Shown here: positions 7,929-30,860 of the stretch, piece by piece | Layout: each line of letters opens with the position of its first letter | How positions within the stretch are numbered: the first letter of the stretch is position 1 | From: Escherichia phage E21 | Strand: one strand, 5' to 3' | DNA length: 58,536 nt | Sequence record: NC_052983.1 | Translations under genes and position numbers: made by a program | The notes under the pieces: generated by a model | Told to the model about the DNA's origin: nothing | The model's input: the letters and a program-made list of their open reading frames with translations, nothing else | Databases searched by the model: none

Positions 7929-7929
7929 T

Positions 7930-13973: not shown

Positions 13974-13991
13974 TGTACAAATTTTATACAG
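13974..13991. repeat. near-palindromic box TGTACAAATTTTATACAG, copy 2
   Basis: Direct repeat of 13855..13871, about 120 bp apart. Confidence 0.6.
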
Positions 13992-14786: not shown

Positions 14787-14807
14787 AAAAACGACGTTCC
14801 CGATCGG
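14787..14807. repeat. 21-bp box AAAAACGACGTTCCCGATCGG, copy 2
   Basis: Direct repeat of 13807..13828. Confidence 0.7.
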
Positions 14808-15012
14808 CGTGTTCACCCGAGGCGCTATACCCCCGCTCAACGGATACGACCGACAAACTTAAAACCCCCTTTAAGTCGGAACAAACAAAGCGCCGTCTTC
14901 CGCCCTCAATCGAACCACACGGGCATAACTCATCGTAGGTAATACATCGGCCTTACCTAGCGGGCAAAACACGCTGAGGACGCAACACATGGCTTTACGG
15001 CAATTTTCCATA

Positions 15013-15067
15013 GGGTGGGGGGGAATGGGGGAGAGTGAGGGCTTGGGGTGGTGGTGTTGGGTGGGTA
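15013..15067 (+). other. G-run tract with G-quadruplex potential (C-rich on the transcribed minus strand)
   Basis: GGGTGGGGGGG..GGGGG..GGG..GGGG..GGTGG..GGGTGGG within 55 nt, directly 3' of the minus-strand small membrane protein gene. Confidence 0.5.
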
Positions 15068-15160
15068 GGCGCTGGCGCGACCGCATGGACAGACTGACGG
15101 CTAAGAACGAGAAAAGCCCCGCACGAATGCGAGGCCTTGGGGGTGGACTGTGTGGGACGG

Positions 15161-15400
15161 CTACCGGATTGTTAGGGCGACGCCTCCGGCGAACACCAAG
15201 ATCGCAACGCAAACCATGAAGACGACCATCATGATAGCGCCGATTGATTCGAGAACTAACGTAGTGCGGTGTAGACCGTCGAAACCGTGGTTTTGTAGGG
15301 CGCGGAAAAAGAACGAGAGAATATAAATCGAAATTAGGCCGAAGAAACACACGGCGCCCACGTTGTACACACCGGAGAGTAGCATCTTGAGAATGCTCAT
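15161..15400 (-). CDS. small membrane protein (2-3 predicted TM helices)
   Basis: Hydrophobic segments VGAVCFFGLISIYILSFFF and IGAIMMVVFMVCVAILVFAGGVAL; start set at internal ATG 15400 (ATGA overlap with upstream gene). Confidence 0.45.
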   Translation of the reverse strand: MSILKMLLSGVYNVGAVCFFGLISIYILSFFFRALQNHGFDGLHRTTLVLESIGAIMMVVFMVCVAILVFAGGVALTIR

Positions 15401-15975
15401 TTTCGACCGCCTCGTGCTTTTCGTTCTGCGATTATGTCTTTCTGGCAATAGTCGCTGAGTTGTTCCCAGTCGTCGGGGATCTCGACGTAATCGCCACCGT
15501 CTAGGCGGGAGGACATCAACGACTCAGAAAAGTAAATCCGCTCATTGGTTCGCACGTTCACGTACTCCGCAAACATTCCGCGAGGGTGTTCTGTCCCACT
15601 TCGTTGTAACGTTGCCCCCGTGTGTGCGATGGGGTCTTTTCCATTTTTGACGTAGACTAGCGCAGGGAATTTAAAACGGTCTTCCTGATCCTGAGTTTGT
15701 TCGTCCTCCTCGAACTTTACGCCACAGAACGGGCAATAATTCATAAACACAGGAAAATCAGATTTTGTTACCGTCGAGTAGAGCGTCCCGTCCGGTCTAC
15801 GCTCTTGATACTCTATGGTGAAGTCTAGAAAATATCGGGTTTTCAACTTTTTATTTTCAATAGCTAACACTTCTGTTTTCCACTCCGCCGAGTGTATTAT
15901 TGCGCCGTTCGGCAACTTACCGGCCACCCGATCAGCCATCGATTTTTGAATACGATCGAAACAGTTACAACTCAT
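15397..15975 (-). CDS. hypothetical protein with CxC...CPFC cysteine pairs
   Basis: 192-aa ORF, no antisense competitor of similar length. Confidence 0.5.
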   Translation of the reverse strand: MSCNCFDRIQKSMADRVAGKLPNGAIIHSAEWKTEVLAIENKKLKTRYFLDFTIEYQERRPDGTLYSTVTKSDFPVFMNYCPFCGVKFEEDEQTQDQEDRFKFPALVYVKNGKDPIAHTGATLQRSGTEHPRGMFAEYVNVRTNERIYFSESLMSSRLDGGDYVEIPDDWEQLSDYCQKDIIAERKARGGRK

Positions 15976-16184
15976 AATAATTGACTCCTAACAGACGAGT
16001 AGATGACGAAACACGCGCCCACCATCACAAAGGTGATTCCGGCTAAACTTACAGCGCGTAATTTCTCAAAGGTTTCGCTTCGGGTCGCTTTGTTCGTCCC
16101 CACGATACACAGGACAGCCACGCCGAACCCTAACACCATCAAAACGACACCGAGACAAAACGGCCAAGCGTTGATTATTTCCAT
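15972..16184 (-). CDS. small membrane protein (2 TM)
   Basis: 70 aa, two hydrophobic helices; ATGA overlap with downstream gene. Confidence 0.45.
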   Translation of the reverse strand: MEIINAWPFCLGVVLMVLGFGVAVLCIVGTNKATRSETFEKLRAVSLAGITFVMVGACFVIYSSVRSQLL

Positions 16185-16197
16185 TTTCGGCCACCCC

Positions 16198-16887
16198 CTA
16201 GCGATCCATAAATTGAGTATTTGCTATTCCGTGTGGGTTAATGACAATATCCCCGTAGGTGTCCGCGACAACGTTTAACACAATCCCCACGCTAGAATCG
16301 AACTGGTCGCAAAATAAATCGCCATCGCTGACTAGGTAAGGCTGGCGGAGTGTTTGCAGGTCAGTTAATACGGTGAGTGTGTTCAAGTTCTCCCCCGCGT
16401 CTAGCTCTGATTGCGTTAGTTCCTCGTCCTCTAGAACTTTCTCCCCTTGACATACTAGAACCGATTTACCGTTATCTTTCGCCAAGGGTGAGGTAATTAA
16501 ATAACAATCGTTTTTCCATGTGCCGAGATTCACGCCACCAATCAACGACGGAATGATTAACGGCGTTTTGACCTCACCTAGTAGTGTATTTATCGGCAAT
16601 AAATCAACGTGGAGAAAGTCGAACGAGTGAAAGCCGGTATTATGCGCTACGATCAGCTTTTCCATGCCATGCGCCCAAAAGCGCACACGGTTAAACCTAT
16701 CTTCCGGAACCATGCCAAGAGACTCAACGTCGCCCAGTTCATGACCCATTTTATGCAAGTGGTACGAAGCCCCACTGGCTTTAGTGCGGAAATCTTCAAA
16801 GCTAATATTTGTATGGAAAACGGCGCCCGCTTTAGTGTGGATCTTCATGTCAAACGTGTTTTGAGTACAACCAGTTAATACGATCAT
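16198..16887 (-). CDS. hypothetical protein
   Basis: 229-aa ORF; RBS AAAGGA upstream. Confidence 0.5.
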   Translation of the reverse strand: MIVLTGCTQNTFDMKIHTKAGAVFHTNISFEDFRTKASGASYHLHKMGHELGDVESLGMVPEDRFNRVRFWAHGMEKLIVAHNTGFHSFDFLHVDLLPINTLLGEVKTPLIIPSLIGGVNLGTWKNDCYLITSPLAKDNGKSVLVCQGEKVLEDEELTQSELDAGENLNTLTVLTDLQTLRQPYLVSDGDLFCDQFDSSVGIVLNVVADTYGDIVINPHGIANTQFMDR

Positions 16888-16936
16888 TTTTTAAATCCTT
16901 TAGTTTTAGTTTTAATTCAAGCCAAATTATTAAATA

Positions 16937-17737
16937 TTAGTTTCTTTGAGGTAACGGGCGAAACTCAATGCGACGAGAACCACCCTCAATCATGAAATTC
17001 TCGATCACTGATGACAGTCGGGCTTTCTGGTTTACTGCGATAGTCTCATAGTCACCGCGCCAACCGTACACCCGTAAAACTTTCGTCGGCGCACTATGCG
17101 ATAGAATGGCGAGGTTCCCATTGCGTATATCGTAGGCCAAACGGTCGAGGGTGTATATCATTGACCACACATATTGTAAGTCGTTATTAAACATCGTATT
17201 TATAGACACGATAATCTTGATCGCCCCTTGATTGTTTATAGCACTTTTGAAGTTTAGAACTTGGCCACGATATACGACACCAAACGACTTGCGAACGATC
17301 AAGAGGCTATCCATAAGCACTAAATCCAATGGGTCGGCTTTCTCCGCTTTACGCGTCATCTCCTTGATTCCTCTACGTTGCTGTGCGCTTGGTTGCATTG
17401 ATTTACGCAATGATACGTGAAGCGGTTTATCTAGGGATACGGTTTTATTTGATAACTCGGTCAAGTAGTCAACAGAACCACACGCACGGATCTTGTTCTC
17501 GACGATATTAAAACTTCCGGCTTCTACGGTTTCGGTTGCCACTTTCTCGCCCACGATAACGGTGATAAAGGCTTTATACGTTAGTTTTTCGCCGGCGGAA
17601 TATTTAACTTTGATAGATGCGGTCGCGTCTTTATTCGTGTAAGTAACCGTTTCATAGTGCGTAGGATTAGCTTTGATAACGTTACAAATTTGACGTAATT
17701 CCGCACGTTCTGAAGCACCGATAGTAATCTTTTTCAT
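16937..17737 (-). CDS. hypothetical protein
   Basis: 266 aa; preceded by promoter/leader cassette A and RBS GAGGA. Confidence 0.55.
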   Translation of the reverse strand: MKKITIGASERAELRQICNVIKANPTHYETVTYTNKDATASIKVKYSAGEKLTYKAFITVIVGEKVATETVEAGSFNIVENKIRACGSVDYLTELSNKTVSLDKPLHVSLRKSMQPSAQQRRGIKEMTRKAEKADPLDLVLMDSLLIVRKSFGVVYRGQVLNFKSAINNQGAIKIIVSINTMFNNDLQYVWSMIYTLDRLAYDIRNGNLAILSHSAPTKVLRVYGWRGDYETIAVNQKARLSSVIENFMIEGGSRRIEFRPLPQRN

Positions 17738-17790
17738 TTTAAAATCCTCAATACTGGTTAAAGTTTCCGGTTCGTTCCGGCTATGTGTGT

Positions 17791-17819
17791 AATATAATGC
17801 TACCGCTTTCAGGTGTCAA
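17791..17819 (-). promoter_or_regulatory. sigma70-like promoter, cassette A (TTGACA-17-TATATT) with conserved leader
   Basis: Minus-strand TTGACAcctgaaagcggtagcatTATATT; ~85-bp cassette repeated near-identically at 19510..19590 and 21000..21075. Confidence 0.6.
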
Positions 17820-17898
17820 CATGTTTTTATAATTATTTTAGATAATAAAAAAGGACGGCCACCAGAAAAGATGACCGCCCCGATTGTTGATGCTTCGA

Positions 17899-18120
17899 TT
17901 ACCGTGTGAGCATCGTAACCACGGATTTTTTAACCATTTCCAAGGAATCCCCGCCAAGGCTCACACCTTGCCCGCAGAAAGTCCACGGCTTGAGGTGGTG
18001 TGGTGTCTTGGCAATCGTCCCGATCCATACACCGCCCGCAACAACGTAATAAATATTTTCGCCTCGCTCTTGGTAAATCTCGATCGTCTTATCCAAGGTT
18101 GGATTATTTACCGGCTTCAT
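17899..18120 (-). CDS. hypothetical protein
   Basis: Track ORF 17899..18174 trimmed to internal Met (MKPVNN) to limit overlap with upstream gene. Confidence 0.35.
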   Translation of the reverse strand: MKPVNNPTLDKTIEIYQERGENIYYVVAGGVWIGTIAKTPHHLKPWTFCGQGVSLGGDSLEMVKKSVVTMLTR

Positions 18121-18754
18121 TTTCTCCCCCTTTAATCTTAACGAGTTCTTGCTTGTACTCGGATCCGAGCACATAATTTTTATTTTCTTCCTTGGGATAA
18201 GGCAATACCGGATATCGAAGCAACTTTTTATACTTCTTCACGACCGAACGGCTCCCCGTAAAATAAACGTAACGATGCTTAGATGTTCTGACTTGTCGAT
18301 ACGTCTTGCTTTCCTTTCCTTGATAATGCCGAGAGTGTTTACCTTGCTCCGTGTATTTATCGGTGCGCGCTTTCGTCGCCCCCGTGTAGATGAAATTAGA
18401 CGCTTGATAAATATATCCGTTGTGGTTCATACCGCGATCCGCATACGACACGATGACAAGGTTTTCACTTTTCAACTCAGCCATAGCGAAGGCGATCAAC
18501 TGCGACGGAGCGTTACGGATTGGACGAATAAAACAAAGTCGGTTTAACTCAAAAACGTGGCTTTTGTACTCCTCGCCCAATATTCCAACACATAGCGGGT
18601 TGCTGGCCGGCTTACCGATAGTTAGAACCCCGACAAGCTCCTCGTCTTCGAAGAACCCGAAAGCGTAAGATATGCTAGGTCGACGTTTCGCATAATGGTA
18701 GTTTAGGATTATGTCTAAACAGTCTTTAGGATCAACGCGTCTCATCGTGTACAC
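18104..18754 (-). CDS. hypothetical protein with GNAT-like C-terminal motif (possible acyltransferase / Mom-like)
   Basis: 216 aa; ...IVSYADRGMNHNGYIYQASNFIYTG resembles GNAT motif B; assignment is tentative. Confidence 0.45.
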   Translation of the reverse strand: MYTMRRVDPKDCLDIILNYHYAKRRPSISYAFGFFEDEELVGVLTIGKPASNPLCVGILGEEYKSHVFELNRLCFIRPIRNAPSQLIAFAMAELKSENLVIVSYADRGMNHNGYIYQASNFIYTGATKARTDKYTEQGKHSRHYQGKESKTYRQVRTSKHRYVYFTGSRSVVKKYKKLLRYPVLPYPKEENKNYVLGSEYKQELVKIKGGENEAGK

Positions 18755-18757
18755 GTT

Positions 18758-19498
18758 TTAACCCTCCCACGTCCACGATTCTGAGGCGTCACGAACAATA
18801 ATTTCGGCCGGACGATTCGCGCGTATCGCAACGTCTTTACCATCAACGAAGTAGACCGCGAAAAAATGCCCGAACACGTCGCCATCTTTCACGTGGATTT
18901 CTCGCCCGTCGTCTTCGCAGTAGAACACTGTAAGCCCGTCAACTGATGCTTCGTTGTTCACTTCGAAACCAAGGCTTGACAGGCCGTCTAACAGTGGGCG
19001 CATTGTGTCGAAACTTTCAGGGAGTGACGCCAAGATCAAGGCGTCTAAATCGCTAACCGCGTTACGTTTAAGCGTCACACACCCGCCGATCGTGAAAGTT
19101 ATGTCCCAACCTTCGGCTTCTTCGCCACGGCTAAAAAATATGGCTTTTAATTCTTTCCCGTCGATTGTTTTCGCAAATGTTGTCGCTCCGTGAGATTTAT
19201 CAAGGTCTAAAGAGAACCCCAGCGCTTTCATTACGGCGATAGTTCGTGCGGATAAGTCCGCATCATTGGCCATATGACAGCTCGCACCATGATCGAACAC
19301 GCTCACCTCGACGCTCTCAAATAGGTAACGTGCTAGTGGAATGAATTTATCGAAATCCGCAATTAATGCTATCGCCCCCGATAATGTTTTAACATCGCCC
19401 ACCTTGGCGCGAGGGTTAACTGTCAAAATATAATTACGAACACTTTCGGGCATATCAAAAGGGCTGTTATCGGTTACAACGTTAGAAATGAAAGTCAT
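18758..19498 (-). CDS. hypothetical protein
   Basis: 246 aa; preceded by promoter cassette B and RBS GAGGA. Confidence 0.55.
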   Translation of the reverse strand: MTFISNVVTDNSPFDMPESVRNYILTVNPRAKVGDVKTLSGAIALIADFDKFIPLARYLFESVEVSVFDHGASCHMANDADLSARTIAVMKALGFSLDLDKSHGATTFAKTIDGKELKAIFFSRGEEAEGWDITFTIGGCVTLKRNAVSDLDALILASLPESFDTMRPLLDGLSSLGFEVNNEASVDGLTVFYCEDDGREIHVKDGDVFGHFFAVYFVDGKDVAIRANRPAEIIVRDASESWTWEG

Positions 19499-19552
19499 GA
19501 TTTAAATCCTCAAAACTGGTTTAAGTTTCCGGTTCGTTCCGGCGATGTGAGT

Positions 19553-19581
19553 AATATAATACTACCGCTTTCAGGTGTCAA
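19553..19581 (-). promoter_or_regulatory. sigma70-like promoter, cassette B (TTGACA-17-TATATT)
   Basis: Near-identical to cassettes A and C. Confidence 0.6.
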
Positions 19582-19609
19582 CAAGTTTTTTATAAATATT
19601 TTAGGCAAT

Positions 19610-19650
19610 AAAAAACCTCTTACCGTGGCACCGAATAAGAGGTTTTAGTT
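19610..19650 (-). terminator. rho-independent terminator (structurally bidirectional)
   Basis: CCUCUUA-13 nt loop-UAAGAGG; U6 on minus strand, UUUUAGUU on plus. Confidence 0.65.
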
Positions 19651-19729
19651 ACTAACTTGTTTTCATGTTTTCAAATCAAGGCTATATTAACGGATATTTT
19701 TCAACTTGTAAACAATAAATTTCTCAGCG

Positions 19730-19758
19730 GAAAAGAAAAAAGCCCGCATATACGGGCT
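19730..19758 (-). terminator. rho-independent terminator
   Basis: Minus RNA AGCCCG-UAUAUG-CGGGCU followed by UUUUUCUUUUCC. Confidence 0.65.
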
Positions 19759-20047
19759 TAAAATATAAGGCTTAATGACCTAAAATTACGCAAACTTTAC
19801 GAAGTGTGGCACAAGCAACCCAAATCAACCAACGGATGCGAACTTATCCACCGTTGAGCCGAACAATAACACCGTTACGTGGTGCTGTCAAGCGTCGCTA
19901 CACATAGCCCAATTGAACCGCGCCACGGTGAATATATCCCACAGGATACGCACTTTAATCGAAACAAAACTAGCCCGTTACTACTGCGAGCCTCAGATCT
20001 AAACGGCTTACCGCATGAACAATAATACCAGTTTTTCTTTTCCCTGA

Positions 20048-20413
20048 TCACCATACAGACCCCCTTACGTTCGTTAGCGTGTCCCTATAACTCCGGTATA
20101 AATTTTTTGCGCCTCGTATCCATTCGCCGGCGATCTCCCCCGAGAAAAGAACCGGCTCGTAAACCGGATAAGTGACATTAGGGTAATCCGTTCTTACGTC
20201 GTCGATCCTAACGTATGCCCTCCGGTGTCCATAAGAATATCGGACGGTTAGGACTCTAAGCAACTTGTTGTTAACATGGAACACCACGCCATAAGAGTAA
20301 TTAAATTCCGGTAATGATAAATCGTTGCTAGGCCTCCCGATAGCCACTACCGGTAGATTTAGAAACTCATTACAAACCTCATAAAATTTGAAACAATTTA
20401 CTGAGTTACCCAT
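20048..20413 (-). CDS. hypothetical protein
   Basis: Track ORF 20048..20515 trimmed to internal Met (MGNSVN), which overlaps the stop of the upstream gene. Confidence 0.45.
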   Translation of the reverse strand: MGNSVNCFKFYEVCNEFLNLPVVAIGRPSNDLSLPEFNYSYGVVFHVNNKLLRVLTVRYSYGHRRAYVRIDDVRTDYPNVTYPVYEPVLFSGEIAGEWIRGAKNLYRSYRDTLTNVRGSVW

Positions 20414-20975
20414 GATATACAACCCCGCGCAGTTCCAGACCTCGGAAATTATAATAAATTTCAGACTCTCCGGCTTCGTTCGGCGCCCACATGCACACAG
20501 AAAAGTCGCCAGCATCGAACTCTCTTAGGTGTGGAATGTGACCGAAACGGCACCCGCCAGTGATTACCAGTTCGTCGATTGTTCCGAACTCCTCGCAACC
20601 CTCGACAACTTCTTCCAGTGCTTCGGCCAGTTCTTCGATGTAGGCTTCCACTTGTTCACGCCAAGACGCGCTTATTAATGCGTTAGCTTCCATCATCAAA
20701 CATTTTAATGAACTTTTGCACCCGCTGAAATCTAAAGGCGTTTCTAGCTCAACAGAATCAAACTCGCTAGACTGGACGATCTCCCATGCTTCCCCGAAGT
20801 AGTCGACGCTGATACATTCCGGCGCATTCATAAGATTATTTTCTTCGAAAAGGTCGCGTAATTGATTTTCGAAATCTCCGCGGGTATCTAATGAAGTTCC
20901 TTTAGGTAGACCCGTACTAACATCATCAACGATAGATTGGAAGATAGACGCTTTAGTGTATGCTAATTCTGCCAT
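20406..20975 (-). CDS. strongly acidic hypothetical protein (DNA-mimic-like composition)
   Basis: 189 aa from ATG 20975 (RBS GAGGA 8 nt upstream); ~40 D/E versus ~11 K/R; preceded by promoter cassette C. Confidence 0.5.
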   Translation of the reverse strand: MAELAYTKASIFQSIVDDVSTGLPKGTSLDTRGDFENQLRDLFEENNLMNAPECISVDYFGEAWEIVQSSEFDSVELETPLDFSGCKSSLKCLMMEANALISASWREQVEAYIEELAEALEEVVEGCEEFGTIDELVITGGCRFGHIPHLREFDAGDFSVCMWAPNEAGESEIYYNFRGLELRGVVYHG

Positions 20976-21029
20976 GGTAATACTCCTCAATACTGGTTAA
21001 AGTTTCCGGTTCGTTCCGGCTATGTGTGT

Positions 21030-21058
21030 AATATAATACTACCGCTTTCAGGTGTCAA
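21030..21058 (-). promoter_or_regulatory. sigma70-like promoter, cassette C (TTGACA-17-TATATT)
   Basis: Near-identical to cassettes A and B. Confidence 0.6.
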
Positions 21059-21080
21059 CATGTTTTTGTGATTATTTTAA

Positions 21081-21482
21081 TCAATCGGGGAAATAGGGAA
21101 TTTTACACTCACATAAGGTCAGATTTTCTATGTGGGTAAAAATAACCTCTAAGTGCAACGTCTTCCAGCACTGACCAGAATTAAGGAAATGCCGGCGGAT
21201 AATGAGCCAGCCCCGATCATCTTCGACTATTCCGGATATGCGAAGGCTTACAATAGTTTTGTTGTCTGAGTAAGCCGGTTTACTCTCCGGATCAGCTCGG
21301 AAGTAAAACGCATTAGCTAGGTTTAAAATAGTCTGTATGTCGTGCGTAGATAGTTGTAACTCTTTTTCGTGCGGACTCAAGAACGAAGAAAGCCGGGATC
21401 TCGCCCGGCGTGAATTGGTATCTTTAGGAACTGATGAAAAGTATGTCACACCGTCCACCCCATCAACTGTATAATCGCTCAA
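21081..21482 (-). CDS. hypothetical protein
   Basis: 133 aa; TTG start with RBS GAGGTG upstream. Confidence 0.4.
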   Translation of the reverse strand: MSDYTVDGVDGVTYFSSVPKDTNSRRARSRLSSFLSPHEKELQLSTHDIQTILNLANAFYFRADPESKPAYSDNKTIVSLRISGIVEDDRGWLIIRRHFLNSGQCWKTLHLEVIFTHIENLTLCECKIPYFPD

Positions 21483-21654
21483 AACTTTTCACCTCTCGAT
21501 GTGTAACCGTTCGATTATATGAAATGTTACGAGTTAACATAAAGCGCATATCCCACGCCGGACAGAATAGCGAACCGTCTGCGTTTACCGTAACTTTTTC
21601 GTCGTCAGCGATTAAAATCATACCGCTGTTTAATGTGATTTTATTCTTCATCAT
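21463..21654 (-). CDS. hypothetical small protein
   Basis: Track ORF trimmed to internal Met (MMKNKITL). Confidence 0.3.
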   Translation of the reverse strand: MMKNKITLNSGMILIADDEKVTVNADGSLFCPAWDMRFMLTRNISYNRTVTHREVKSFERLYS

Positions 21655-21883
21655 TACCGCCCCCACGTATCGCAGATATAAACGCCTCCCCGCTCTCCTG
21701 ATCAGGCCACGCAATCCCGCCGACCACCCCAAACGCTACCCCATAAAGACAGAAACGCGCGACGGTTAGATCACCATATACGGCCAAAGTTCCCACCGCC
21801 CCCGCGAACCCTACCGCACAAAGAGACGCGACGACAAAACCAAACGCCCCGCGAGCCTCTAAATTATTTAATTTCTTAGCCAT
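21641..21883 (-). CDS. small membrane protein (2 TM)
   Basis: 80 aa; hydrophobic helices FGFVVASLCAVGFAGAVGTLAV and FCLYGVAFGVVGGIAW. Confidence 0.45.
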   Translation of the reverse strand: MAKKLNNLEARGAFGFVVASLCAVGFAGAVGTLAVYGDLTVARFCLYGVAFGVVGGIAWPDQESGEAFISAIRGGGNDEE

Positions 21884-21894
21884 CGATAAACTCC

Positions 21895-22221
21895 TTACGG
21901 GTGAATAATAATATTATCGTTGCGAGTTCGAACCGGCTCCGATAAATACATATTAGCCACCTTACCGCTTTTTATATCCTTTTTAATCTCGGACACCATC
22001 AAGCCCGACCGGATAATTACAGAAGACGGGCTACTCACTCTTTCTTCTGATATCGCAACAGGGAAAGGGAAATCATTCAATAAGTTATCGATGAACTTTT
22101 CCAGATAATCCGCGTCGGCTTTATGGGAGAGAACGACATATTGCTCATAGTTCGCCTCGATCCCTGTGACAGTCAGACGATGCGCAGAACGGAAAAGATC
22201 GAAAGGAATTTGTTTGCTCAT
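21895..22221 (-). CDS. hypothetical protein
   Basis: Start at ATG 22221 (MSKQIPFD) with RBS GAGG; downstream of promoter D. Confidence 0.45.
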   Translation of the reverse strand: MSKQIPFDLFRSAHRLTVTGIEANYEQYVVLSHKADADYLEKFIDNLLNDFPFPVAISEERVSSPSSVIIRSGLMVSEIKKDIKSGKVANMYLSEPVRTRNDNIIIHP

Positions 22222-22253: not shown

Positions 22254-22282
22254 ATATTAGCAACACCTCGGGCCGGTGTCAA
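22254..22282 (-). promoter_or_regulatory. sigma70-like promoter D (TTGACA-17-TAATAT), shares the -35/upstream element of cassettes A-C
   Basis: Minus-strand TTGACAccggcccgaggtgttgcTAATAT. Confidence 0.45.
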
Positions 22283-22287
22283 CAAGT

Positions 22288-22562
22288 TTTTATCTATAAA
22301 AATTCTGACGGAACAAAGGAAACGCGCCCACCGGTGCGCCCGTACATACATATAAGTCGGCCAGTTTGTACTTATCTACAAAAATTTCGGGCTTACTTCA
22401 AAAACCTCGCGGGCCGATGATTTTCTGTGACGATTTAAAAACTTTTCCGGCCGGCTTACTTCAAAAACCTCGCGGGCTGAAAAAATTCCCGTGAGAAATA
22501 AAAACCGGCCAATGGATTTATCTACAAAAATTAGAACCTTACTTCAAAAACCTCGCCGGTTG
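22288..22562. repeat. iteron-like direct repeat array (3x TATCTAyAAAAATT and 3x CTTACTTCAAAAACCTCGC(G/C)GG)
   Basis: Motif A at 22291, 22373, 22519; motif B at 22392, 22455, 22538; in the divergent control region between minus promoter D and plus promoter 22621. Confidence 0.7.
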
Positions 22563-22620
22563 ACGGAAATCCTCGGGTAACATCGATTAAAACTTTACGG
22601 CCAAAAATACATAAAAACGT

Positions 22621-22649
22621 TTGACACCGCAAACAGGTTAGATTAGTAT
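22621..22649 (+). promoter_or_regulatory. sigma70-like promoter of plus-strand early operon (TTGACA-17-TAGTAT)
   Basis: TTGACAccgcaaacaggttagatTAGTAT, then RBS AAGGGG and ATG 22691. Confidence 0.5.
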
Positions 22650-22690: not shown

Positions 22691-23122
22691 ATGATCGAGT
22701 CAGAAGATATTATTTTCGTAAACGGCGACAAACCTAAAATCGATAACTCGCCAGCGCTAGAAAGACGCAACACGGTTAGTGTAGAACTAGAACGAGAGTT
22801 AACCGCAGCGTCTTCGATTCCGGACAAACTTACAGTAGTACCAACAAAAGGGAGACCAACCAGCATGGTAGGTATGATCGTATCGTTAGATGTCGGAGAC
22901 GTGTTCACTAAATCCGAGTTTATTCTTGAAGTTTCAGGTCTCGACGCCATGAGCGAGAGCGTAGACCTGACTACACGAAAAGAAAAACTCAGACAAAGCG
23001 TAAAAGCGTCTATGACACACGCTAAAAAGAAAACTAAGGGCGAATATACTTTAGAAACGCACCACTTTATTACGCCGTTGGGTCGCCTTTACATTCAAGT
23101 TTTAGTGACCCGTATTTCCTGA
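22691..23122 (+). CDS. hypothetical protein
   Basis: 143-aa ORF, first gene after promoter. Confidence 0.5.
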   Translation: MIESEDIIFVNGDKPKIDNSPALERRNTVSVELERELTAASSIPDKLTVVPTKGRPTSMVGMIVSLDVGDVFTKSEFILEVSGLDAMSESVDLTTRKEKLRQSVKASMTHAKKKTKGEYTLETHHFITPLGRLYIQVLVTRIS

Positions 23123-23203
23123 GCAATTTTTTGTAGGTTTCACGTTTTTTAAAAAGGCGTGACACCCTATGGTAAACAACCACCCTATCGGAGAGAAAAA
23201 CCA

Positions 23204-23515
23204 ATGGAACGCAACGACAATTTAGAGCACACCACCCCCGCAGACCCGGATACGCAAATCGTCAAGTTGTTAGAGGGGAACCCGGATCTTTTAAAGCACT
23301 TTTATAAACTTTCCGCATTAGCGGGAAACGTGGGGGAGATGGAACGCTCTTTCGAAGAACGAGTTGACGCCGTGTTTAAAGTAGGTATCCGCCTAGTCAT
23401 GGTCGCGAGCAACCGGAAAAACCTTATCGTAACCGATGACGATGTGGCAAAGGCGGAGAACTCAACACTGGAAGTTAGCGAAAATAACGGCAATGTTAAA
23501 TATATGATCAAGTAG
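23204..23515 (+). CDS. hypothetical protein
   Basis: Start set at MERNDN, which has RBS GGAGAG; the upstream ATG lacks an RBS. Confidence 0.45.
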   Translation: MERNDNLEHTTPADPDTQIVKLLEGNPDLLKHFYKLSALAGNVGEMERSFEERVDAVFKVGIRLVMVASNRKNLIVTDDDVAKAENSTLEVSENNGNVKYMIK

Positions 23516-23520
23516 GTAAT

Positions 23521-23841
23521 ATGAAAAATTCAAACGTAGCACTCGCCATTGATTCCGTTTTGGTAAAAAAGAAAATTGATATTATCCCGGTTTTTAAATC
23601 GTTAGAGGAAGAATATCAAATGCGGATACAAGCGTCGTGGTCAGGCATCACCGCGCACACGCCAGAACGACGCATCTACACCCACGGCCACCCGACTACT
23701 AAGATGGCAACAACACCGGAACAACGTACAACGTATCGCCTCCGTCTATTGAAATTCCTACGGTGGCTCTACGCGAACAACTACACAACGGGGCCACTGT
23801 TAGAAATCAAATCGTGGCTAGAGGAGCAAGAGGAATGGTAA
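23521..23841 (+). CDS. hypothetical protein
   Basis: 106-aa ORF. Confidence 0.45.
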   Translation: MKNSNVALAIDSVLVKKKIDIIPVFKSLEEEYQMRIQASWSGITAHTPERRIYTHGHPTTKMATTPEQRTTYRLRLLKFLRWLYANNYTTGPLLEIKSWLEEQEEW

Positions 23842-24182
23842 AGGTCTTATACAACAGCGAACAAGCGCAAGTAAACCAGTTGCGAGACCAGATTAAATCG
23901 CACACTGAGTCGTTTGAAACAGCGATGGCCGAAGTCGACCAGATCATTAAAGAAAATATCGAGACATACCTAAACGATATATCCGGGTTAATGATGTCGA
24001 TAGTTAGAGTGTATGACAACGCGGAGATTGAGGACAAAGCGGTGGCCTTAGATCTTGTTCACTCTAAAGCGGTAACTCGTTTAGCTGCTATCGAAGATAA
24101 GAGCATAGAACTACGCGCCCATATTGAAAACTTAGTATCCACCATTAAAACCGGAGTGATTAAAAACAATGAAACCATTTGA
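23835..24182 (+). CDS. hypothetical protein (coiled-coil-like)
   Basis: Start set at MVKVLYN with RBS GAGGAGCAAGAGGA; overlaps previous stop. Confidence 0.45.
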   Translation: MVKVLYNSEQAQVNQLRDQIKSHTESFETAMAEVDQIIKENIETYLNDISGLMMSIVRVYDNAEIEDKAVALDLVHSKAVTRLAAIEDKSIELRAHIENLVSTIKTGVIKNNETI

Positions 24183-25257
24183 TAAATTTATTGCTTTTGC
24201 AATATCTGAACCAGCAGACCCTAACAATACGACTTCGTTTTCCGCATTAGCTAACGGGACAGAAGACCAACTAAAACAACTAGGCCGAGAACTAGAAACA
24301 AGCCTGAGAAACTTACCGATCGGAGACCCAAGCGCTATGCAGTGGACGCGCCACGGTTTTGCTAAACCCGACGAGAACGCCGAACCGATCACCGTTGTAG
24401 ATGAAGTCCTAGGGGACATGGAAGACACACCATACGTTATGATAGACGAAGCGGGTAAATATCTTGTGTTCACTTTCGAAGAACGTGCTCGAATGCTAAG
24501 CCCGACAACGATCAAGGACGAATTAGAGGTTAAAGTAAAAGATTGGATAGAACGAGTTGGTGACACCCCGACAAAACGTGAACGTAATGATATGCGCGAT
24601 GAAATCATCAATGACTTGTTGCCAAAGGCCACAATAAAGCGCACCAAGACATACGCCATGATCATCAAGGGTGTTCTTATTGTCTTCGCCGGTAGCAATA
24701 ACATCGGTGAAAAAGTAGCATCGGCCGTAAGAAAGGTAGTAGGGTCTCTCCCAGTAGTACCATGGTTTGAGCATTCGGCCCTCATTACGGAGTTTCTAAA
24801 GAAAATCGCTACGGTAGACTTTGACCCGGAAGATGCAGTAGGCCAAGCGCTAGATAAATTTGAGATTGTCCGTAGTGCTAAAGTCTCCGCTGAAACCGGT
24901 GCGTACACTTTCAAAGATGTTTTTGACATCACGAATGACGTTTCCTTCAAAGAAGCGCTAGGACAAACTAACGGATACTCATACCCTCTCGGGATCACCG
25001 AAGCGAATTTAGAATTACGACATGACGCCACAGACAGCCCTATCGGTTTTGTTCTTACGGCCAAAGGCGTTTTAAAGAGCGTAAATTGGAATGACGAGCC
25101 GGAAAATATTTTCGACGACTCAGTGTTTGACACGAACGAGGAACGGGAGCGTGCTCGATTTATTTTCTCTACGTGGGACGCTTACACCTTAGTTACGGCC
25201 GTGCTAGGAGCGCTACACAACGCAAACGCAAACCGATTTGTAGAAGACGATATGTAA
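24169..25257 (+). CDS. rdgC: RdgC-like recombination-associated protein
   Basis: 362 aa; block RNDMRDEIINDLLPKA...VRKVVGSLPVVPW closely parallels the E. coli RdgC core (...LRKSLGSLPVVPL) from memory. Confidence 0.7.
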   Translation: MKPFDKFIAFAISEPADPNNTTSFSALANGTEDQLKQLGRELETSLRNLPIGDPSAMQWTRHGFAKPDENAEPITVVDEVLGDMEDTPYVMIDEAGKYLVFTFEERARMLSPTTIKDELEVKVKDWIERVGDTPTKRERNDMRDEIINDLLPKATIKRTKTYAMIIKGVLIVFAGSNNIGEKVASAVRKVVGSLPVVPWFEHSALITEFLKKIATVDFDPEDAVGQALDKFEIVRSAKVSAETGAYTFKDVFDITNDVSFKEALGQTNGYSYPLGITEANLELRHDATDSPIGFVLTAKGVLKSVNWNDEPENIFDDSVFDTNEERERARFIFSTWDAYTLVTAVLGALHNANANRFVEDDM

Positions 25258-25259
25258 TT

Positions 25260-25460
25260 ATGAATACAGAACGTAAAAAACTGGCGTCTAACCTGACAAG
25301 ACTAAAAGTCGGAGAGTCTTTCTTCGTAGAATGTCTTCCGAAAGACCTAGCCCACGTTCGACGCCTAGCTTATAAGCTGAATATTAAGTTATCCATGGTT
25401 CGTGTCGATGTCGACCCGATCTACGGTACATTGGGGACGAGGATATCTCGCGTCAAGTAA
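25260..25460 (+). CDS. hypothetical small basic protein
   Basis: 66-aa ORF from internal Met of track ORF 25173..25460. Confidence 0.35.
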   Translation: MNTERKKLASNLTRLKVGESFFVECLPKDLAHVRRLAYKLNIKLSMVRVDVDPIYGTLGTRISRVK

Positions 25461-25467
25461 AAACGCA

Positions 25468-25503
25468 TTGACACCTTGCGGGGGATTAGTTACGATTCCC
25501 CCG
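25468..25503 (+). promoter_or_regulatory. sigma70-like promoter (TTGACA-17-TACGAT) overlapped by a 7-bp inverted repeat (operator-like)
   Basis: TTGACAccttgcgggggattagtTACGAT; inverted repeat CGGGGGA..11 nt..TCCCCCG spans the -10. Confidence 0.45.
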
Positions 25504-25526
25504 TATTATAAACGTAAGAGGCTCAC

Positions 25527-26345
25527 ATGATTAAACTTATGCACTATGCGGATTACGACTACCGCGACCCAAGTAAACATGAACACCGAATATTCCCGGT
25601 TCCGGCCGGAATTAGAGTCGGGGTGATCATTAAACGCGTTAAGTCCATCGCGAACCCAACAAAGATTGAGGTGTGGCAATACGACGAAAAAGGTAACGCG
25701 ATTACTGACCTTACCGGCTTCGCCCCACACATCGAGGAAATATGTTTAAAAGCGTACCAATGGCTTACAGAACATACATTATCTCTATCCGGGATCTCTG
25801 ATACTGAGTCCGATGCGTATGACTCCGGGATCGTAATCGATGGGTATTTCCAAGATATCCGTCCCAACTATGGAACGGCCGACGAGACATTAGACCAGTT
25901 GGAAGAATGGTTATTAGATGAATTCGAGACGACGGACGAAACTAAAACCATATTTCAATATCTGGCCGTTACGACCTACGAGTCAGCGCTTCGCGGTAAA
26001 GACGGTAAAGACATTCATCTACGCCGTTCTAACCTACGCCATGCGTTGTGCGCATCGAACAATGCTGACCACACCCGAGCAAATATCTCTGTCTCGGATA
26101 ATGTGCCACGTTTTACCGTGTGGCCGATGTCTATGTCACCTCGTTCTTGGGATATGAGCAAGCCCGGCCCGAACGCTTGGGACTCCATGGCGGGCGTCGC
26201 AGCACCAAGAGGTCAACAATTCGAAGACCAGTTAAATACATGCTTTGAGCGCGGTTTTATCGGCGGGCTAGATATGCGAGCGTTTCACGGCTGGAATACA
26301 AGAGTTACCGCGTACCAGTTTATTACTGAGGACGCAACGTTATGA
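25527..26345 (+). CDS. hypothetical protein
   Basis: 272-aa ORF; RBS AAGAGG. Confidence 0.5.
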   Translation: MIKLMHYADYDYRDPSKHEHRIFPVPAGIRVGVIIKRVKSIANPTKIEVWQYDEKGNAITDLTGFAPHIEEICLKAYQWLTEHTLSLSGISDTESDAYDSGIVIDGYFQDIRPNYGTADETLDQLEEWLLDEFETTDETKTIFQYLAVTTYESALRGKDGKDIHLRRSNLRHALCASNNADHTRANISVSDNVPRFTVWPMSMSPRSWDMSKPGPNAWDSMAGVAAPRGQQFEDQLNTCFERGFIGGLDMRAFHGWNTRVTAYQFITEDATL

Positions 26346-27109
26346 TTGACGGGGAATTGGATATTATGGCACTACCACAGATTAAAGACTTTGCCGGATA
26401 CGATGGCCCGTTAGACCACCCGATCATTATGCCTGTTCCGTCCCTCATGAGGGCGGAAGTCTATGTATCCCACGATTTAAAGGATATAGAAATCAACGGC
26501 GTTTTTCGCGACGGAACCTATTCTGCGTCGAGATGGACGGGGTTATGCCCGGAATTAGAAGAACAATTTTTATTCCTAGCGGAGTTGTTGAAAGACGACT
26601 TTAAGGAAAAATGTATCCTCCCATTTAGAGTTGGTCGAGACAAGTCCGAACTACGGGAAGTCGATAGATTTATCCCGGGGATCACCGGAAACATCGGTTT
26701 TGAAGTGTATTTACATGACACCGGGGATTTCGGCACCAAGTATACTCAGAAATACTTAGCCAACAGTAAGATGACGGGAGAGAAAGACGACGGCGGGCTA
26801 GTATCCGCCTCGATCGTGAGCGCTTACGGGTTCGGGGAACTAACGCCAGTTTCGCGCGAGGTAATAGACGTTGTGCGGATTTACGAAAGACGTTATCAGA
26901 TTAGCCACCGACTCAACCTCATGGACGACGAGGGGTATTTGCTGTCATTAGCTCCCGGAGAACTGAAACGCGTTGACGCGGTACGAACTGCTGAATTCTA
27001 TTTCGAACAAGGATACCCCAACGTGATTATTCTCAATTCCGGACGTCCGTACAACTCCGACGCTACCGGACAAATGTATTACTATTCACCGGAGACATAC
27101 GACTTATGA
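26342..27109 (+). CDS. hypothetical protein
   Basis: 255-aa ORF, ATGA overlap with neighbours. Confidence 0.5.
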   Translation: MIDGELDIMALPQIKDFAGYDGPLDHPIIMPVPSLMRAEVYVSHDLKDIEINGVFRDGTYSASRWTGLCPELEEQFLFLAELLKDDFKEKCILPFRVGRDKSELREVDRFIPGITGNIGFEVYLHDTGDFGTKYTQKYLANSKMTGEKDDGGLVSASIVSAYGFGELTPVSREVIDVVRIYERRYQISHRLNLMDDEGYLLSLAPGELKRVDAVRTAEFYFEQGYPNVIILNSGRPYNSDATGQMYYYSPETYDL

Positions 27110-27552
27110 CCGAGCACAAGAAATTAACCCGCGTGTACGGCGCTAACCTTTGTACTTTTTGCGGTAGAGCATGGGAAGACGGAGAAGAAATCCCCGATTG
27201 CGTTGCGCCCCAAGAGGAGGTTCAAAAAACACGCAAGAAATTTTTCCGGGCATACTTCCCGGCGCCAACCCACTTTACCGCATGGTTGTTATATGGGAAT
27301 AACGGTAAAGCGATGGTCGCCTATGCGGATCATCGGGAGGTGGCTTTACGCATCGGGTATTATTGGACGAGAAACAGAAAAGATATTGTAAAGGTAGAAG
27401 AATCGGCGGAGCTAACCCGTTTTGCTGTTTGGCAATCCGTACCCTATATTGAGATTAATCCGGTAATTATTAATAAACTAAACCAGTTAAGCAAAAAAGG
27501 GGATAACATAATAATATCTCCCGCTAATTTTAAAAAGGCCATTTATGACTAA
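27106..27552 (+). CDS. hypothetical protein
   Basis: 148-aa ORF. Confidence 0.5.
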   Translation: MTEHKKLTRVYGANLCTFCGRAWEDGEEIPDCVAPQEEVQKTRKKFFRAYFPAPTHFTAWLLYGNNGKAMVAYADHREVALRIGYYWTRNRKDIVKVEESAELTRFAVWQSVPYIEINPVIINKLNQLSKKGDNIIISPANFKKAIYD

Positions 27553-28177
27553 GTTAGATGAAGTACGCAAATTATCATACTCGTTCAAACTGCCCGAAGA
27601 TGTCCGAGAGGGAACCTATGTAGTTTTACGCTTCGAATCTGAGGTAGGAAAGTGGTATCAGAACGCAAATATTGTTAGCTATATGCTCGGTGTTATCAGC
27701 CACACTACTAAGACACAATTCCAAGTTTCTTGTGAGGGTTTATCCTCCCCGATGCGTTTCGGGCGCGATGGCGGTATCCGCGCAGACAGCAAGGGACAAG
27801 TTGGTGGCGCACTAAGAACGTCAGTATTCCTTGCCGGTAGTGCAGATACCGCAGAAGAATACATCAAGGGCCAAGTAGAACAACACAACGACCCCGAAGT
27901 AGTAAGACGCGAGCCAACGTTCCACTTAAAAAATGCTGACGATTTGATAGGTATCATCGTCAAGCTGGACAAGCTGATAAACGATGCGACAACGCTATGG
28001 GGCGCAATACCTGAAAAATGGAAAGGCCGAGAGCAACGACGTAGCCGAAACGACCGAATACCGCATGATATGTTAGTAGCGATCTTGTGTAATCCGGACG
28101 CATCGGACATATTAGCAGACCTATTTAAGTCCATAGCTAAAGCATTCGGAGTATCAACCAAAAAAGAGGAAGAATGA
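27545..28177 (+). CDS. hypothetical protein
   Basis: 210-aa ORF. Confidence 0.5.
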   Translation: MTKLDEVRKLSYSFKLPEDVREGTYVVLRFESEVGKWYQNANIVSYMLGVISHTTKTQFQVSCEGLSSPMRFGRDGGIRADSKGQVGGALRTSVFLAGSADTAEEYIKGQVEQHNDPEVVRREPTFHLKNADDLIGIIVKLDKLINDATTLWGAIPEKWKGREQRRSRNDRIPHDMLVAILCNPDASDILADLFKSIAKAFGVSTKKEEE

Positions 28178-28914
28178 TGATCAATCCCTACGCGGTGGAA
28201 TTACAGAAATTGAAAGACGCCAAGAAACACATTCCAAAGCAGATAAAAGACCAATGGCGTACTCCGGACTGGCTTTTCTACGCGCTAAACTCTTTATACG
28301 GCCCGTTCTTGGTAGATTTGTTTTCAGATGGACAGAATGCTAAGTGCTCCCGGTATTTCATGGCCGAGGATAATGCGCTACAACAGAACTGGAAAGAAGC
28401 ACTAGAAGACGCCAAGTTTGAATTCCTTATCGATGCAGACTGTGCGGGGTACGATGCTACTGACGATCTAAAGACGGCCAAGTGTTTTGCTAACCCGCCA
28501 TACAGCCCGGCTAAGTATATCGGTAAAGGGCGTAAGAATAGAATACCGCTCTGTGGTATGCGAAATATCATGGCTAAGGCCTACGAGGAACACAAGGCCG
28601 GTTGCCCTTCATTCTGGTTGCTTAAATCCGCCACGTCAGAAGATTGGTGGCCTAACGAGACCGCAAGCCAGATAATCCACATCAAGGGTAGAATTGCTTT
28701 CGAGAAACCGGTGTGGTTTAGAGATGAGGTCGTAGACCGCGTGGAAAGTAGTGCTGCTTTCGGTGCGTCCGTTGCTATTTTTAACGGAATAAACGATATT
28801 CAAGAACCGGAAGCCTACATCAGTCGAGATACCTTAAAATTAATAGGGGAGCCACTTGCTGAAATTAATGCGGAAAGACGCGCCGAGTGGATAGCTAGTT
28901 TCGACGATCTATAA
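28174..28914 (+). CDS. phage-type DNA N6-adenine methyltransferase
   Basis: N-terminal WRTPDWLF and catalytic-type FANPPY motifs typical of the phage Dam family; RBS GAGGAAGA. Confidence 0.7.
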   Translation: MMINPYAVELQKLKDAKKHIPKQIKDQWRTPDWLFYALNSLYGPFLVDLFSDGQNAKCSRYFMAEDNALQQNWKEALEDAKFEFLIDADCAGYDATDDLKTAKCFANPPYSPAKYIGKGRKNRIPLCGMRNIMAKAYEEHKAGCPSFWLLKSATSEDWWPNETASQIIHIKGRIAFEKPVWFRDEVVDRVESSAAFGASVAIFNGINDIQEPEAYISRDTLKLIGEPLAEINAERRAEWIASFDDL

Positions 28915-28919
28915 TTTAA

Positions 28920-28938
28920 GGGGGCCTTGTGGCCTCCC
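28920..28938 (+). other. stable stem-loop immediately 3' of the methyltransferase gene (no U-run)
   Basis: GGGGGCC-UUGU-GGCCUCCC, 7 bp with one G.U. Confidence 0.35.
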
Positions 28939-29155
28939 TATTAAAAGGTAAATCCCGTGAAAATTCTAAAGTATACATTGCTTGTGTTGATTGTGATTTC
29001 TGCGGTTGTCGGCTCATACATGGCAATACGATCAACCTCATGCGCGGAGTATGGCCAGAAGAACAAAGTTGCGACCGAATACTCATTGTACGAGGGTTGT
29101 GTGATAAAAAACTCCGGCCACCCGTAAAAAAGTTCACCTCAAGCGAGAAAAATAG

Positions 29156-29184
29156 TTGACACCGCGATCCGGAGTCGATAGTAT
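29156..29184 (+). promoter_or_regulatory. sigma70-like promoter (TTGACA-17-TAGTAT), same family as 22621
   Basis: TTGACAccgcgatccggagtcgaTAGTAT, then RBS AAGGGGG and ATG 29216. Confidence 0.5.
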
Positions 29185-29215
29185 ACCCCTACACCAAGAG
29201 ATAAGGGGGTACGAC

Positions 29216-29749
29216 ATGGATCATAAGTACAAGGTTTCGGACAGGAATACCGTCGCCCGAGTAGTGGGCCGTCATCGCCAATGGTGCGACGCATACGTTG
29301 AGGTAAAACGTATCGTTCGTGAAATGTCCGAAAAAGGGATAACCGATCTGGAAGTTGACGCGATGCCGATCCACGCGCACCTAAACCGGATTGCTGGTTT
29401 CAACTCATTTTTTGCCAACACTCAAAACGAATGGTGGCTAAGATTTAGACCATTTGAAGCCTACCCACAAGATAACGGGAAGACGCTAATTAAGTACCGC
29501 GACTCCCACCCGTGTAACATCTGGCGAAAAGTAGAAAAGATGGAATTCGACCGAGAAGATTTAGAACGAAGAATAAGTCGTATCGAACAAATATTACAAG
29601 GACAGCCGGAAACAATCGCATACGATAGAAAAGTATTTCGAATTCGTAGAACACAAGAATTATCTCAAACCGGCATGTCAAACCGAAAAGCGAGAAAAAT
29701 CGCATGGGAGGAAGCCGGTAGAGAATTCCCGGGAGAAGACCATGTTTGA
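29216..29749 (+). CDS. hypothetical protein
   Basis: Start moved from track call 29156 (which begins inside the promoter) to ATG 29216 (MDHKYK). Confidence 0.5.
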   Translation: MDHKYKVSDRNTVARVVGRHRQWCDAYVEVKRIVREMSEKGITDLEVDAMPIHAHLNRIAGFNSFFANTQNEWWLRFRPFEAYPQDNGKTLIKYRDSHPCNIWRKVEKMEFDREDLERRISRIEQILQGQPETIAYDRKVFRIRRTQELSQTGMSNRKARKIAWEEAGREFPGEDHV

Positions 29750-29993
29750 TGAAATACGGAGAATAAAACGGAAATATGAAATGTTGCCTCCCGGAGATAA
29801 CATACCTCTGTATGGCGATTTCATTGAGTTTAAGGACGAATTTAACGGAGCAACATATATTGGGGAGGTGTTAGATCACCATTTCAGTTCAACACCTCAC
29901 GATCAAATTTGGAATGTCTTCGTAGACGGCGTGACCATATCTGCGAAACAATCTGAGATAACAAGAGTATACCGACGCAAACGGAGAAAATAG
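29742..29993 (+). CDS. hypothetical protein
   Basis: 83-aa ORF. Confidence 0.4.
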   Translation: MFDEIRRIKRKYEMLPPGDNIPLYGDFIEFKDEFNGATYIGEVLDHHFSSTPHDQIWNVFVDGVTISAKQSEITRVYRRKRRK

Positions 29994-29994
29994 C

Positions 29995-30858: not shown

Positions 30859-30860
30859 AA

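Follow-up and report, generated by a model that had tools for sequence, protein, structure and literature searches.

A conserved, oriented repeat array, probably bound by protein, between the divergent early promoters of Escherichia phage E21 and other Chi-like phages

Repeats between the divergent early promoters

In the genome of Escherichia phage E21 (NC_052983.1) two early transcription units run apart from a short spacer that carries an array of direct repeats, which is the subject of the present analysis. The stretch studied, hereafter referred to as the window, comprises 58,536 bp and represents the complete genome of a Proteus pPM_01-type siphophage (Casjensviridae, Lavrentievavirus, Chi-like). 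The spacer is delimited by the leftward early promoter P_L on the minus strand (TTGACA-17-TAATAT, 22282..22254, with a TG before the -10 element) and the rightward early promoter P_R on the plus strand (TTGACA-17-TAGTAT, 22621..22649), each of which agrees with the consensus at 10 of 12 positions. Beyond these two flanking promoters, no sigma70 consensus is present within the array of this genome or of phages Enc34 and SLP-22. The -35 block of P_L is conserved with phage Kokobel1, which also retains the P_R block GTTTGACACC..AACAGGT, and promoters equivalent to P_L are found in Enc34 and SLP-22.

Two motifs, each present in three irregularly spaced copies on the plus strand, make up the array. 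The A-box, TATCTAyAAAAATT, is located at 22291-22304, 22373-22386 and 22519-22532, and the B-box, CTTACTTCAAAAACCTCGC(G/C)GG (CTTACTTCAAAAACCTCGCsGG), at 22392-22413, 22455-22476 and 22538-22559. At up to one mismatch, 0.07 A-boxes would be expected by chance and none of 100 shuffles reached three, and for the B-box 0.00 matches would be expected even at up to three mismatches. Neither motif recurs elsewhere in the 58.5-kb genome, and a scan with a position weight matrix did not reveal weaker B-box copies. A preliminary description of this DNA had reported these copy numbers and their position between a minus-strand and a plus-strand early promoter, and both statements are thus confirmed. The start-to-start distances are 63 and 83 bp for the B-boxes and 82 and 146 bp for the A-boxes, and the B repeat extends approximately 4-8 bp past this motif (GGyTGa). 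A third and weaker repeat, the C-box CGATTtAAAAaCTTT, is found at 22431-22452 and at approximately 22584-22604. As it follows the first and the third B-box, the layout corresponds to a duplicated A-B-C unit with an extra B-box in between.

Read from left to right along the plus strand, the region begins with A-box 1 (TTATCTATAAAAATT, 22290..22304). A-box 2 (TTATCTACAAAAATT, 22372..22386), which is conserved with Kokobel1, stands 5 bp upstream of B-box 1 (CTTACTTCAAAAACCTCGCGGG followed by CCGA, 22392..22417), whose core is unchanged in eight Lavrentievavirus genomes. C-box 1 (CGATTTAAAAACTTTTCCGGCC, 22431..22452) is weak and partly conserved in Kokobel1 as CGTTTGAAATC, and is followed by B-box 2 (CTTACTTCAAAAACCTCGCGGG with CTGA, 22455..22480). 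A-box 3 (TTATCTACAAAAATT, 22518..22532), again 5 bp upstream of a B-box (B-box 3, CTTACTTCAAAAACCTCGCCGG with TTGA, 22538..22563), lies within the most AT-rich 40-mer of the region. The last element is C-box 2 (ATCGATTAAAACTTTACGGCC, 22584..22604), a weak second copy whose membership is uncertain because it varies among close relatives. The lowest GC content over 40 bp, 23% at 22511, falls at the 0.2 percentile of the genome; the region as a whole has 41% GC, and the AT-rich A-boxes are short. A GC-rich near-palindrome, ACGCGCCCACCGGTGCGCCCGT, which includes the perfect 8-bp palindrome CACCGGTG, was observed between A-box 1 and A-box 2 (22322-22343) and is missing in Kokobel1, where the alignment shows a gap.

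The preliminary description regarded the array as iteron-like, with two interleaved direct repeats. The two repeats are, however, not equivalent, the A-box being an AT-rich element. On the P_L strand the interval 22287-22307 reads AGAATTTTTATAGATAAAAAC and is situated immediately upstream of the -35 hexamer, with the A/T tracts at approximately -40 to -60 that define an UP element; from this position and these tracts we infer that A-box 1 may serve as an UP element of P_L. An A-box beside the -35 hexamer of P_L is likewise present in JC01, L016 and SLP-22. The A-box forms part of a wider motif, TTyTCTAyAAAAATTTyG, which occurs in 1-3 copies in most genera, and the composite of an A-box 5 bp before a B-box is shared with Kokobel1, Aeromonas phage BUCT551 and phage Chi.

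In addition, an inverted repeat was observed in the spacer between the -35 and -10 hexamers of both early promoters (22262-22282 and 22621-22649), which in P_L takes the form ACACC-N7-GGTGT. The corresponding repeats read GACACCT-N5-AGGTC in both Kokobel1 promoters and TTGACAyACGCGGCrTGTG in both promoters of SLP-22 and Enc34. They look like a second, palindromic type of operator that is separate from the B-box.

Conservation of the array in Chi-like phages

The 1.4 kb surrounding the array are 96-99% identical to 26 deposited phage genomes. When the region was used as a blastn query, short matches exactly over the repeats were obtained in one Jacunavirus and one Zhonglingvirus, and further loci were reached via the gene encoding the DUF7609 protein, which lies next to the array. 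In total, 3-6 co-oriented B-boxes were found at the equivalent divergent junction in 11 further genera sampled, and the junction position is identical in all genera examined, including that of Serratia phage JS26. The genera with arrays include Jacuna-, Zhongling-, Kokobel-, Enchi-, Yonsei-, Maxdohrn- and Chivirus as well as Smarc5, with variant forms in Sharonstreet- and Dunedinvirus; the phages comprise Salmonella SLP-22, Cronobacter JC01, Xanthomonas XAP3, Providencia Kokobel1, Hafnia Enc34, Klebsiella Seifer, Serratia Smarc5, Pseudomonas SS2019XI and phage Chi. A search with a 31-nt query under short-query blastn settings matched 134 phage records, the bulk of which, and all matches examined, are Chi-like. 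In bacterial reference genomes the tandem motif was not found as prophage or plasmid, the sole relevant match being a 58.9-kb contig that is probably phage-derived. Our literature search retrieved no paper describing the repeat, and the paper on the Chi genome does not mention it (PMC4342425).

Across the genera sampled, the left half of the B-box, CTTACTTsAAAAA, is nearly invariant, with variants in Seifer, BUCT551 and JS26. Diverged forms are present in BUCT551 (CTTACTTTGGAGATCTCGCAGG, three copies) and in JS26 (GGTACTTGAGAAAGCCAGCsAGACC, six copies), where the array remains at the divergent junction and the DUF7609 gene lies 6 kb off. Among 55 distinct copies TTAC.T and four more positions are invariant, and the consensus reads CTTACTTsAAAAACCTnGCnGGyTG. 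The right half (CCTCGCGGG, CCTAGCCGG, CCTGACAGG, GTTACCCGG and others) is uniform inside one genome and different between genomes. The flanking DNA has diverged between genera, and between these genomes the DUF7609 protein encoded beside the array shares only 18-55% identity. The spacing of the B-boxes has been kept even though the spacer sequence has diverged: the window and Kokobel1 share 63 and 83 bp, SLP-22 and L016 share 61, 57, 47 and 57 bp, and Chi, Smarc5 and L017 share 51, 71, 43 and 49 bp.

Selection on the B-box is also apparent among close relatives. When eight Lavrentievavirus genomes are aligned, variation is seen in 37 of the 338 columns between the promoters, and the three 22-nt B cores, 66 bp in all, contain none of these columns (hypergeometric P ~3e-4; a scripted Fisher test on the 26-bp B-boxes gave p = 0.022). 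The A-boxes contain one variable column in 45 bp. The C-boxes are unprotected, C-box 1 varying at 2 of 22 positions.

Taken together, the conservation across genera and the lack of substitutions in the cores strongly support a multi-site protein-binding region, as had been proposed for this part of the early control region. We therefore consider it very probable that the repeats are under selection and form an oriented array of several protein-binding sites in an untranscribed, cis-acting region between divergent sigma70-type early promoters, that this arrangement is family-wide, that each B-box is an oriented, asymmetric putative site of approximately 26 bp for one sequence-specific DNA-binding protein, and that the A-boxes are AT-rich helper elements.

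The near-invariance of the left half also raises the question of a host protein. A conserved gammaproteobacterial factor might read CTTACTTsAAAAA and, with the UP-like A-boxes and integration host factor (IHF), boost or time early transcription by the host RNA polymerase. In line with this proposal, the half-site hardly changes among phages that infect Proteus, Providencia, Salmonella, Klebsiella, Serratia, Hafnia, Cronobacter, Pseudomonas and Xanthomonas, whereas the phage proteins encoded nearby all diverge; none of the phage genes is distributed in the way the array is; the region also holds IHF consensus sites and UP-like tracts; and the alphaproteobacterial phage Carli has other repeats at the same site. 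The rrnB P1 promoter similarly combines AT-rich tracts immediately before the -35 hexamer of a strong sigma70 promoter with several protein sites at a greater upstream distance. However, its Fis sites are degenerate, whereas the B-box contains a near-invariant 13-mer and is at odds with the Fis consensus: Fis would not constrain TTAC.T, and the flanking G/C that it requires is variable. Comparison by inspection with known consensus sequences (DnaA, IHF, Fis, CRP, LexA, sigma32, sigma28, sigmaE) gave no fit, and the right half differs within one host group, for example between JC01 and SLP-22. We regard a host-factor landing pad as improbable.

The repeats in Sphingomonas phage Carli (L024, 2326-2427) are situated upstream of its DUF7609 gene and consist of two other tandem repeat pairs of 22 and 25 nt with a period of 25 bp. 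This difference suggests that the sites have undergone sequence turnover in this phage of an alphaproteobacterium.

Moreover, we considered that the array may itself be transcribed, either from tandem promoters for an alternative or phage-modified RNA polymerase or as a repeat RNA. Every copy is directed at the rightward operon, and the CTTGAAA of the G-variant resembles a -35 element of sigma32. On the other hand, no conserved -10-like element follows the repeat, the critical G is replaced by C in half of the genomes, and in BUCT551 the transcripts would cross 2 kb of genes in antisense orientation. No Rfam match was obtained at E values up to 1, folding showed no excess on either strand (z = -0.07 and -0.17), and no covariation was detected. 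A transcribed element is therefore very unlikely. The mini-hairpin ACCT-N3-AGGT in the right half was rejected as well, having no compensatory pairs in 55 copies and pairing no better than shuffled columns. Likewise, a by-eye comparison with known consensus sequences showed that Fis, sigma32, sigma28, sigmaE, OmpR/NarL-type, CRISPR-repeat and ToxI-type readings do not fit the invariant positions.

Genes around the array and candidate binding proteins

The gene map of the window was drawn from Pfam and PHROGs. The minus strand of 1128-10438 encodes gpW, a lambda-type terminase, an SNF2 helicase, PolA, an Enc34-type SSB and a DUF2800 nuclease, and the plus strand of 10791-13750 a 94-amino-acid protein (10791-11075) and a PrimPol/D5-type helicase. 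A non-coding stretch including the cos site (13751-14870) is followed by small early genes on the minus strand, one of which specifies a Mom-like protein (14871-22221). Beyond the array, the rightward early operon on the plus strand (22691-31325) comprises the genes for DUF7609, RdgC and Dam, and a long run of open reading frames on the minus strand (31421-58470), one of which was scanned, is presumed from synteny with annotated relatives to contain the structural genes. Near-identical genomes have also been assigned in their database records to Pseudomonas, Enterococcus, Staphylococcus and Salmonella as hosts, probably erroneously, given a sequence identity of 97-99% with Proteus phages.

The first gene of the rightward operon (22691..23122, plus strand) encodes the DUF7609 protein of 143 amino acids (Pfam PF24582, E = 2e-29), which the preliminary description had put forward as a potential binder. 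Of the 11 other genera sampled that possess an array, 9 have this gene immediately after it, the exceptions being BUCT551 and JS26. Its product is a possible candidate for the protein that binds the B-box. Against this assignment, a structure model and fold search were uninformative, showing no recognisable DNA-binding, Rep-like or winged-helix fold, and the gene persists in Proteus phage Saba, which lacks the array. No sequence match was obtained in the PDB, and approximately 260 remote relatives are nearly all small single-domain proteins without informative fusions. An acidic C-terminal tail of the protein (DDDDEV or ADDDEV, similar to the tails of SSB or gp2.5) was observed in Enc34, Seifer, Smarc5, XAP3 and Chi, and is not present in the window, Kokobel1, Saba or the Jacunavirus phages.

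The 60 kb of Saba (Cenphatecvirus) are devoid of B-boxes, and its junction of 246 bp is free of repeats, yet this phage retains P_L, P_R, DUF7609 (47% identical), the primase (67%), the polymerase, SSB, the helicase and the remaining replication module. The array is therefore accessory to the conserved machinery that would read the B-boxes. Candidate binders were also sought among window genes that Saba does not possess (20406-20990, 18758-19498, 21641-21883, 21895-22221 and others), and were rejected, as no homologue was found in distant array-bearing phages. These genes are restricted to Lavrentieva- and Kokobelvirus or code for a membrane protein.

A centromere-like site had been among the initial proposals, and we considered it together with a clamp-loading site as an element of the parS, parC or sopC type that would serve a partition or DNA-organising system. 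Plasmid R1 parC and F sopC indeed consist, like the array, of tandem direct repeats upstream of an operon, and an HTH_ParB protein is encoded in the rightward operon of Pseudomonas relatives. In the window, however, a homologue of this protein was not detected, and the proteins scanned, which came from the replication module and the early regions and not from the structural genes, included no ParA, ParM or ParB-type protein, partition ATPase or other centromere-binding protein. Furthermore, Chi-like phages are described as lytic cos phages (PMC4342425), and the tandem motif was not found in bacterial reference genomes as prophage or plasmid. The centromere proposal is thus unsupported, and we judge it the least probable of all explanations considered here. 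The HTH_ParB protein of the Pseudomonas relatives comprises 338 amino acids (L041/L042, 7892-8908) and is confined to them; one copy of the phage-like region encoding it sits on a 184-kb Pseudomonas aeruginosa assembly contig, which could indicate that the region is carried as a prophage or episome, or that it was joined to the contig in assembly.

The 1.1-kb non-coding stretch 13751-14870 directly follows the PrimPol-helicase gene (11075-13750). A Chi-type cohesive end, GGTGCGCAGAGC, as published for phage Chi (PMC4342425), is located at 14499-14510 on the minus strand. The stretch harbours three exact IHF consensus sites (14045, 14340 and 14442), the most AT-rich DNA of the neighbourhood (22-25% GC at 14050-14250) and several repeat families, namely GTACAAAWTTTATACAG in two copies, AAAAACGACGyTCCCGATCGG at either edge and CACCCGAACA-type repeats. 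It probably represents cosB, and it is possible that it constitutes an alternative origin. At the cos-proximal end of Saba, CCCTCCCGATCCGC was observed in three copies. A cosB function of the array itself was discarded, as the cos site is 8 kb away.

A second divergent junction, between the replication/structural operon and the operon for the 94-amino-acid protein and primase, is located at 10439-10790. It contains a leftward TTGACA at approximately 10525, preceded by the A-box-like sequence ATATAAAAATTTCG (10531-10544, minus strand).

Replication origin or promoter control

The preliminary description also offered a plasmid-type iteron origin. According to this explanation the B-boxes would be bound by a phage initiator, either the PrimPol/D5-type helicase or an early protein, and negative supercoiling from the strong divergent promoters, together with the AT-rich A-boxes and, in other genera, IHF, would open the DNA and permit loading of the helicase and primase. 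Several observations are consistent with such an origin or replisome-loading zone. Three co-oriented direct repeats in the window and 3-6 in relatives, each of 22-30 bp, correspond to typical iteron numbers and conform to the definition of at least three co-oriented direct repeats of approximately 17-22 bp. Exact IHF consensus sites are enriched in the homologous regions (nine in 13 regions, as compared to 0.25 expected), being present in 8 of the 13. The segment around A-box 3 contains the AT-rich 40-mer that ranks at the 0.2 percentile of the genome for GC content. The right half of the repeat, uniform within and different between genomes, behaves as in pairs of iterons and initiators with matching specificity, and the genome encodes a PrimPol with an SF3-type helicase that is a relative of the NrS-1 enzyme and whose C-terminal 90 amino acids are less conserved than any other part of the protein. 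Lactococcal phages c2 and sk1 have their origins in repeat-rich intergenic regions beside early promoters. Likewise, the iteron origins of pSC101, P1 oriR, R6K gamma and lambda ori contain co-oriented direct repeats of approximately 20 bp that are uniform within a replicon and variable between replicons, with IHF and AT-rich elements nearby, as in most genera studied here, and are located immediately upstream of a promoter and gene.

In contrast to these origins, the array lacks DnaA boxes, a GATC cluster and a recognisable Rep protein. There is no exact DnaA box (TTWTNCACA) in the 13 homologous regions (0.5 expected), and GATC is not enriched (26 observed versus 22 expected). The sole DnaA-like site of the window at one mismatch, TTATCTACA, was rejected, as it is the A-box itself. 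Regular or phased spacing is not seen either: the B-boxes of relatives are 31-153 bp apart (Rayleigh p = 0.38 for 40 spacings) and interleaved with other motifs, whereas iterons are approximately 22 bp apart. Moreover, the array of the window contains no IHF consensus even when one mismatch is allowed, no recognisable initiator gene adjoins it, the PrimPol-helicase gene lies 8.5 kb away, and the stretch 13751-14870, directly after this gene, is more AT-rich and repeat-rich and has three IHF sites. Finally, the array is dispensable in Saba, a close relative that keeps the replication genes. The repeat arrangement of an iteron origin is thus present, whereas its DnaA boxes, GATC clustering, regular spacing and adjacent initiator are not, and on balance we consider this reading possible, though less likely than not.

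As a variant of a role in replication, CTTACTTsAAAAA might act as a signal for loading or priming that is recognised by the best-conserved part of the phage replication machinery, for example by the PrimPol domain, which is 43-58% identical between genera, and would then provide co-oriented starts in DNA underwound by transcription. This appears as improbable as a host factor; if it is correct, a half-site read by PrimPol would represent a new kind of phage origin, and one that Saba does without.

We tentatively favour a different role, namely that the array exerts accessory control over the divergent early promoters. Several copies of the binding protein would load head-to-tail on the spacer and, aided by the bendable A-tracts, and also by IHF in the majority of the other genera, would fold the DNA between the promoters into a complex that modulates their activity. 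The main target would be P_R, which is faced by every copy and is closer than P_L. As a switch or booster outside the core promoters, such an array would fit its complete loss in Saba, where both promoters are kept. Control of the promoters is placed slightly ahead of an iteron origin because the array tracks the junction rather than a gene, always faces P_R and is nearer to it, and can be lost without loss of replication genes.

The operator of the initial proposal is possible and agrees in location, as the array lies in the promoter region, between the -35 hexamers of P_L (22282) and P_R (22621). However, the nearest B-boxes are situated 83 bp (P_R) and 109 bp (P_L) upstream of these hexamers and overlap neither core promoter. 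In relatives, the distance from the B-box to the -35 hexamer of P_R is mostly 40-109 bp (204 bp in the two-copy array of L014) and that to P_L 106-372 bp. Comparable arrangements are known from the p4/p6 region of phi29 and from the operator and IHF site of Mu, where multiple sites for small phage proteins and a DNA-bending protein between divergent early units set promoter activity. However, in phi29 and Mu the sites reach up to or into the core promoters and include inverted repeats, whereas the sites of the array are all direct and lie approximately 40-370 bp from the -35 hexamers. The stoperators of mycobacteriophage L5 resemble the B-boxes in being asymmetric and in having a conserved orientation relative to transcription, but they differ in being 13 bp in length, scattered over the genome inside transcription units and bound by the known repressor of a temperate phage.

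Several further points weigh against accessory promoter control. The early promoters already possess near-consensus hexamers and their own spacer palindromes, and no DNA-binding family was recognised in the early proteins using Pfam, PHROGs and NCBIfam. The variable distance between the last B-box and P_R and the unphased spacing are unlike classical activator geometry. In BUCT551 (L027, 11219-13212) the array is split over 2 kb by inserted leftward genes (gp19-22, one of which is annotated as a GntR-type regulator), and yet the copies are alike. The copy number, length and uniform orientation of the repeats look more iteron-like than those of a typical operator, and a 13-bp half-site that is nearly invariant from Xanthomonas to Proteus hosts is hard to reconcile with a fast-evolving phage regulator.

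Whichever of these functions applies, Chi-like phages (Casjensviridae) are widely isolated and have been proposed for therapy, and our literature search found nothing on the control of their early genes or replication. No other non-coding element found in the family is as conserved as the array, which exceeds the neighbouring proteins in conservation and thus provides a 22-30 bp bait with which the protein governing the early region could be sought. If the array were an origin, it would be the first mapped for a replication module composed of a PrimPol-helicase, PolA and a gp2.5-type SSB. It also represents a defined target for engineering, as a copy cloned on a plasmid might titrate an essential factor and thereby block infection.

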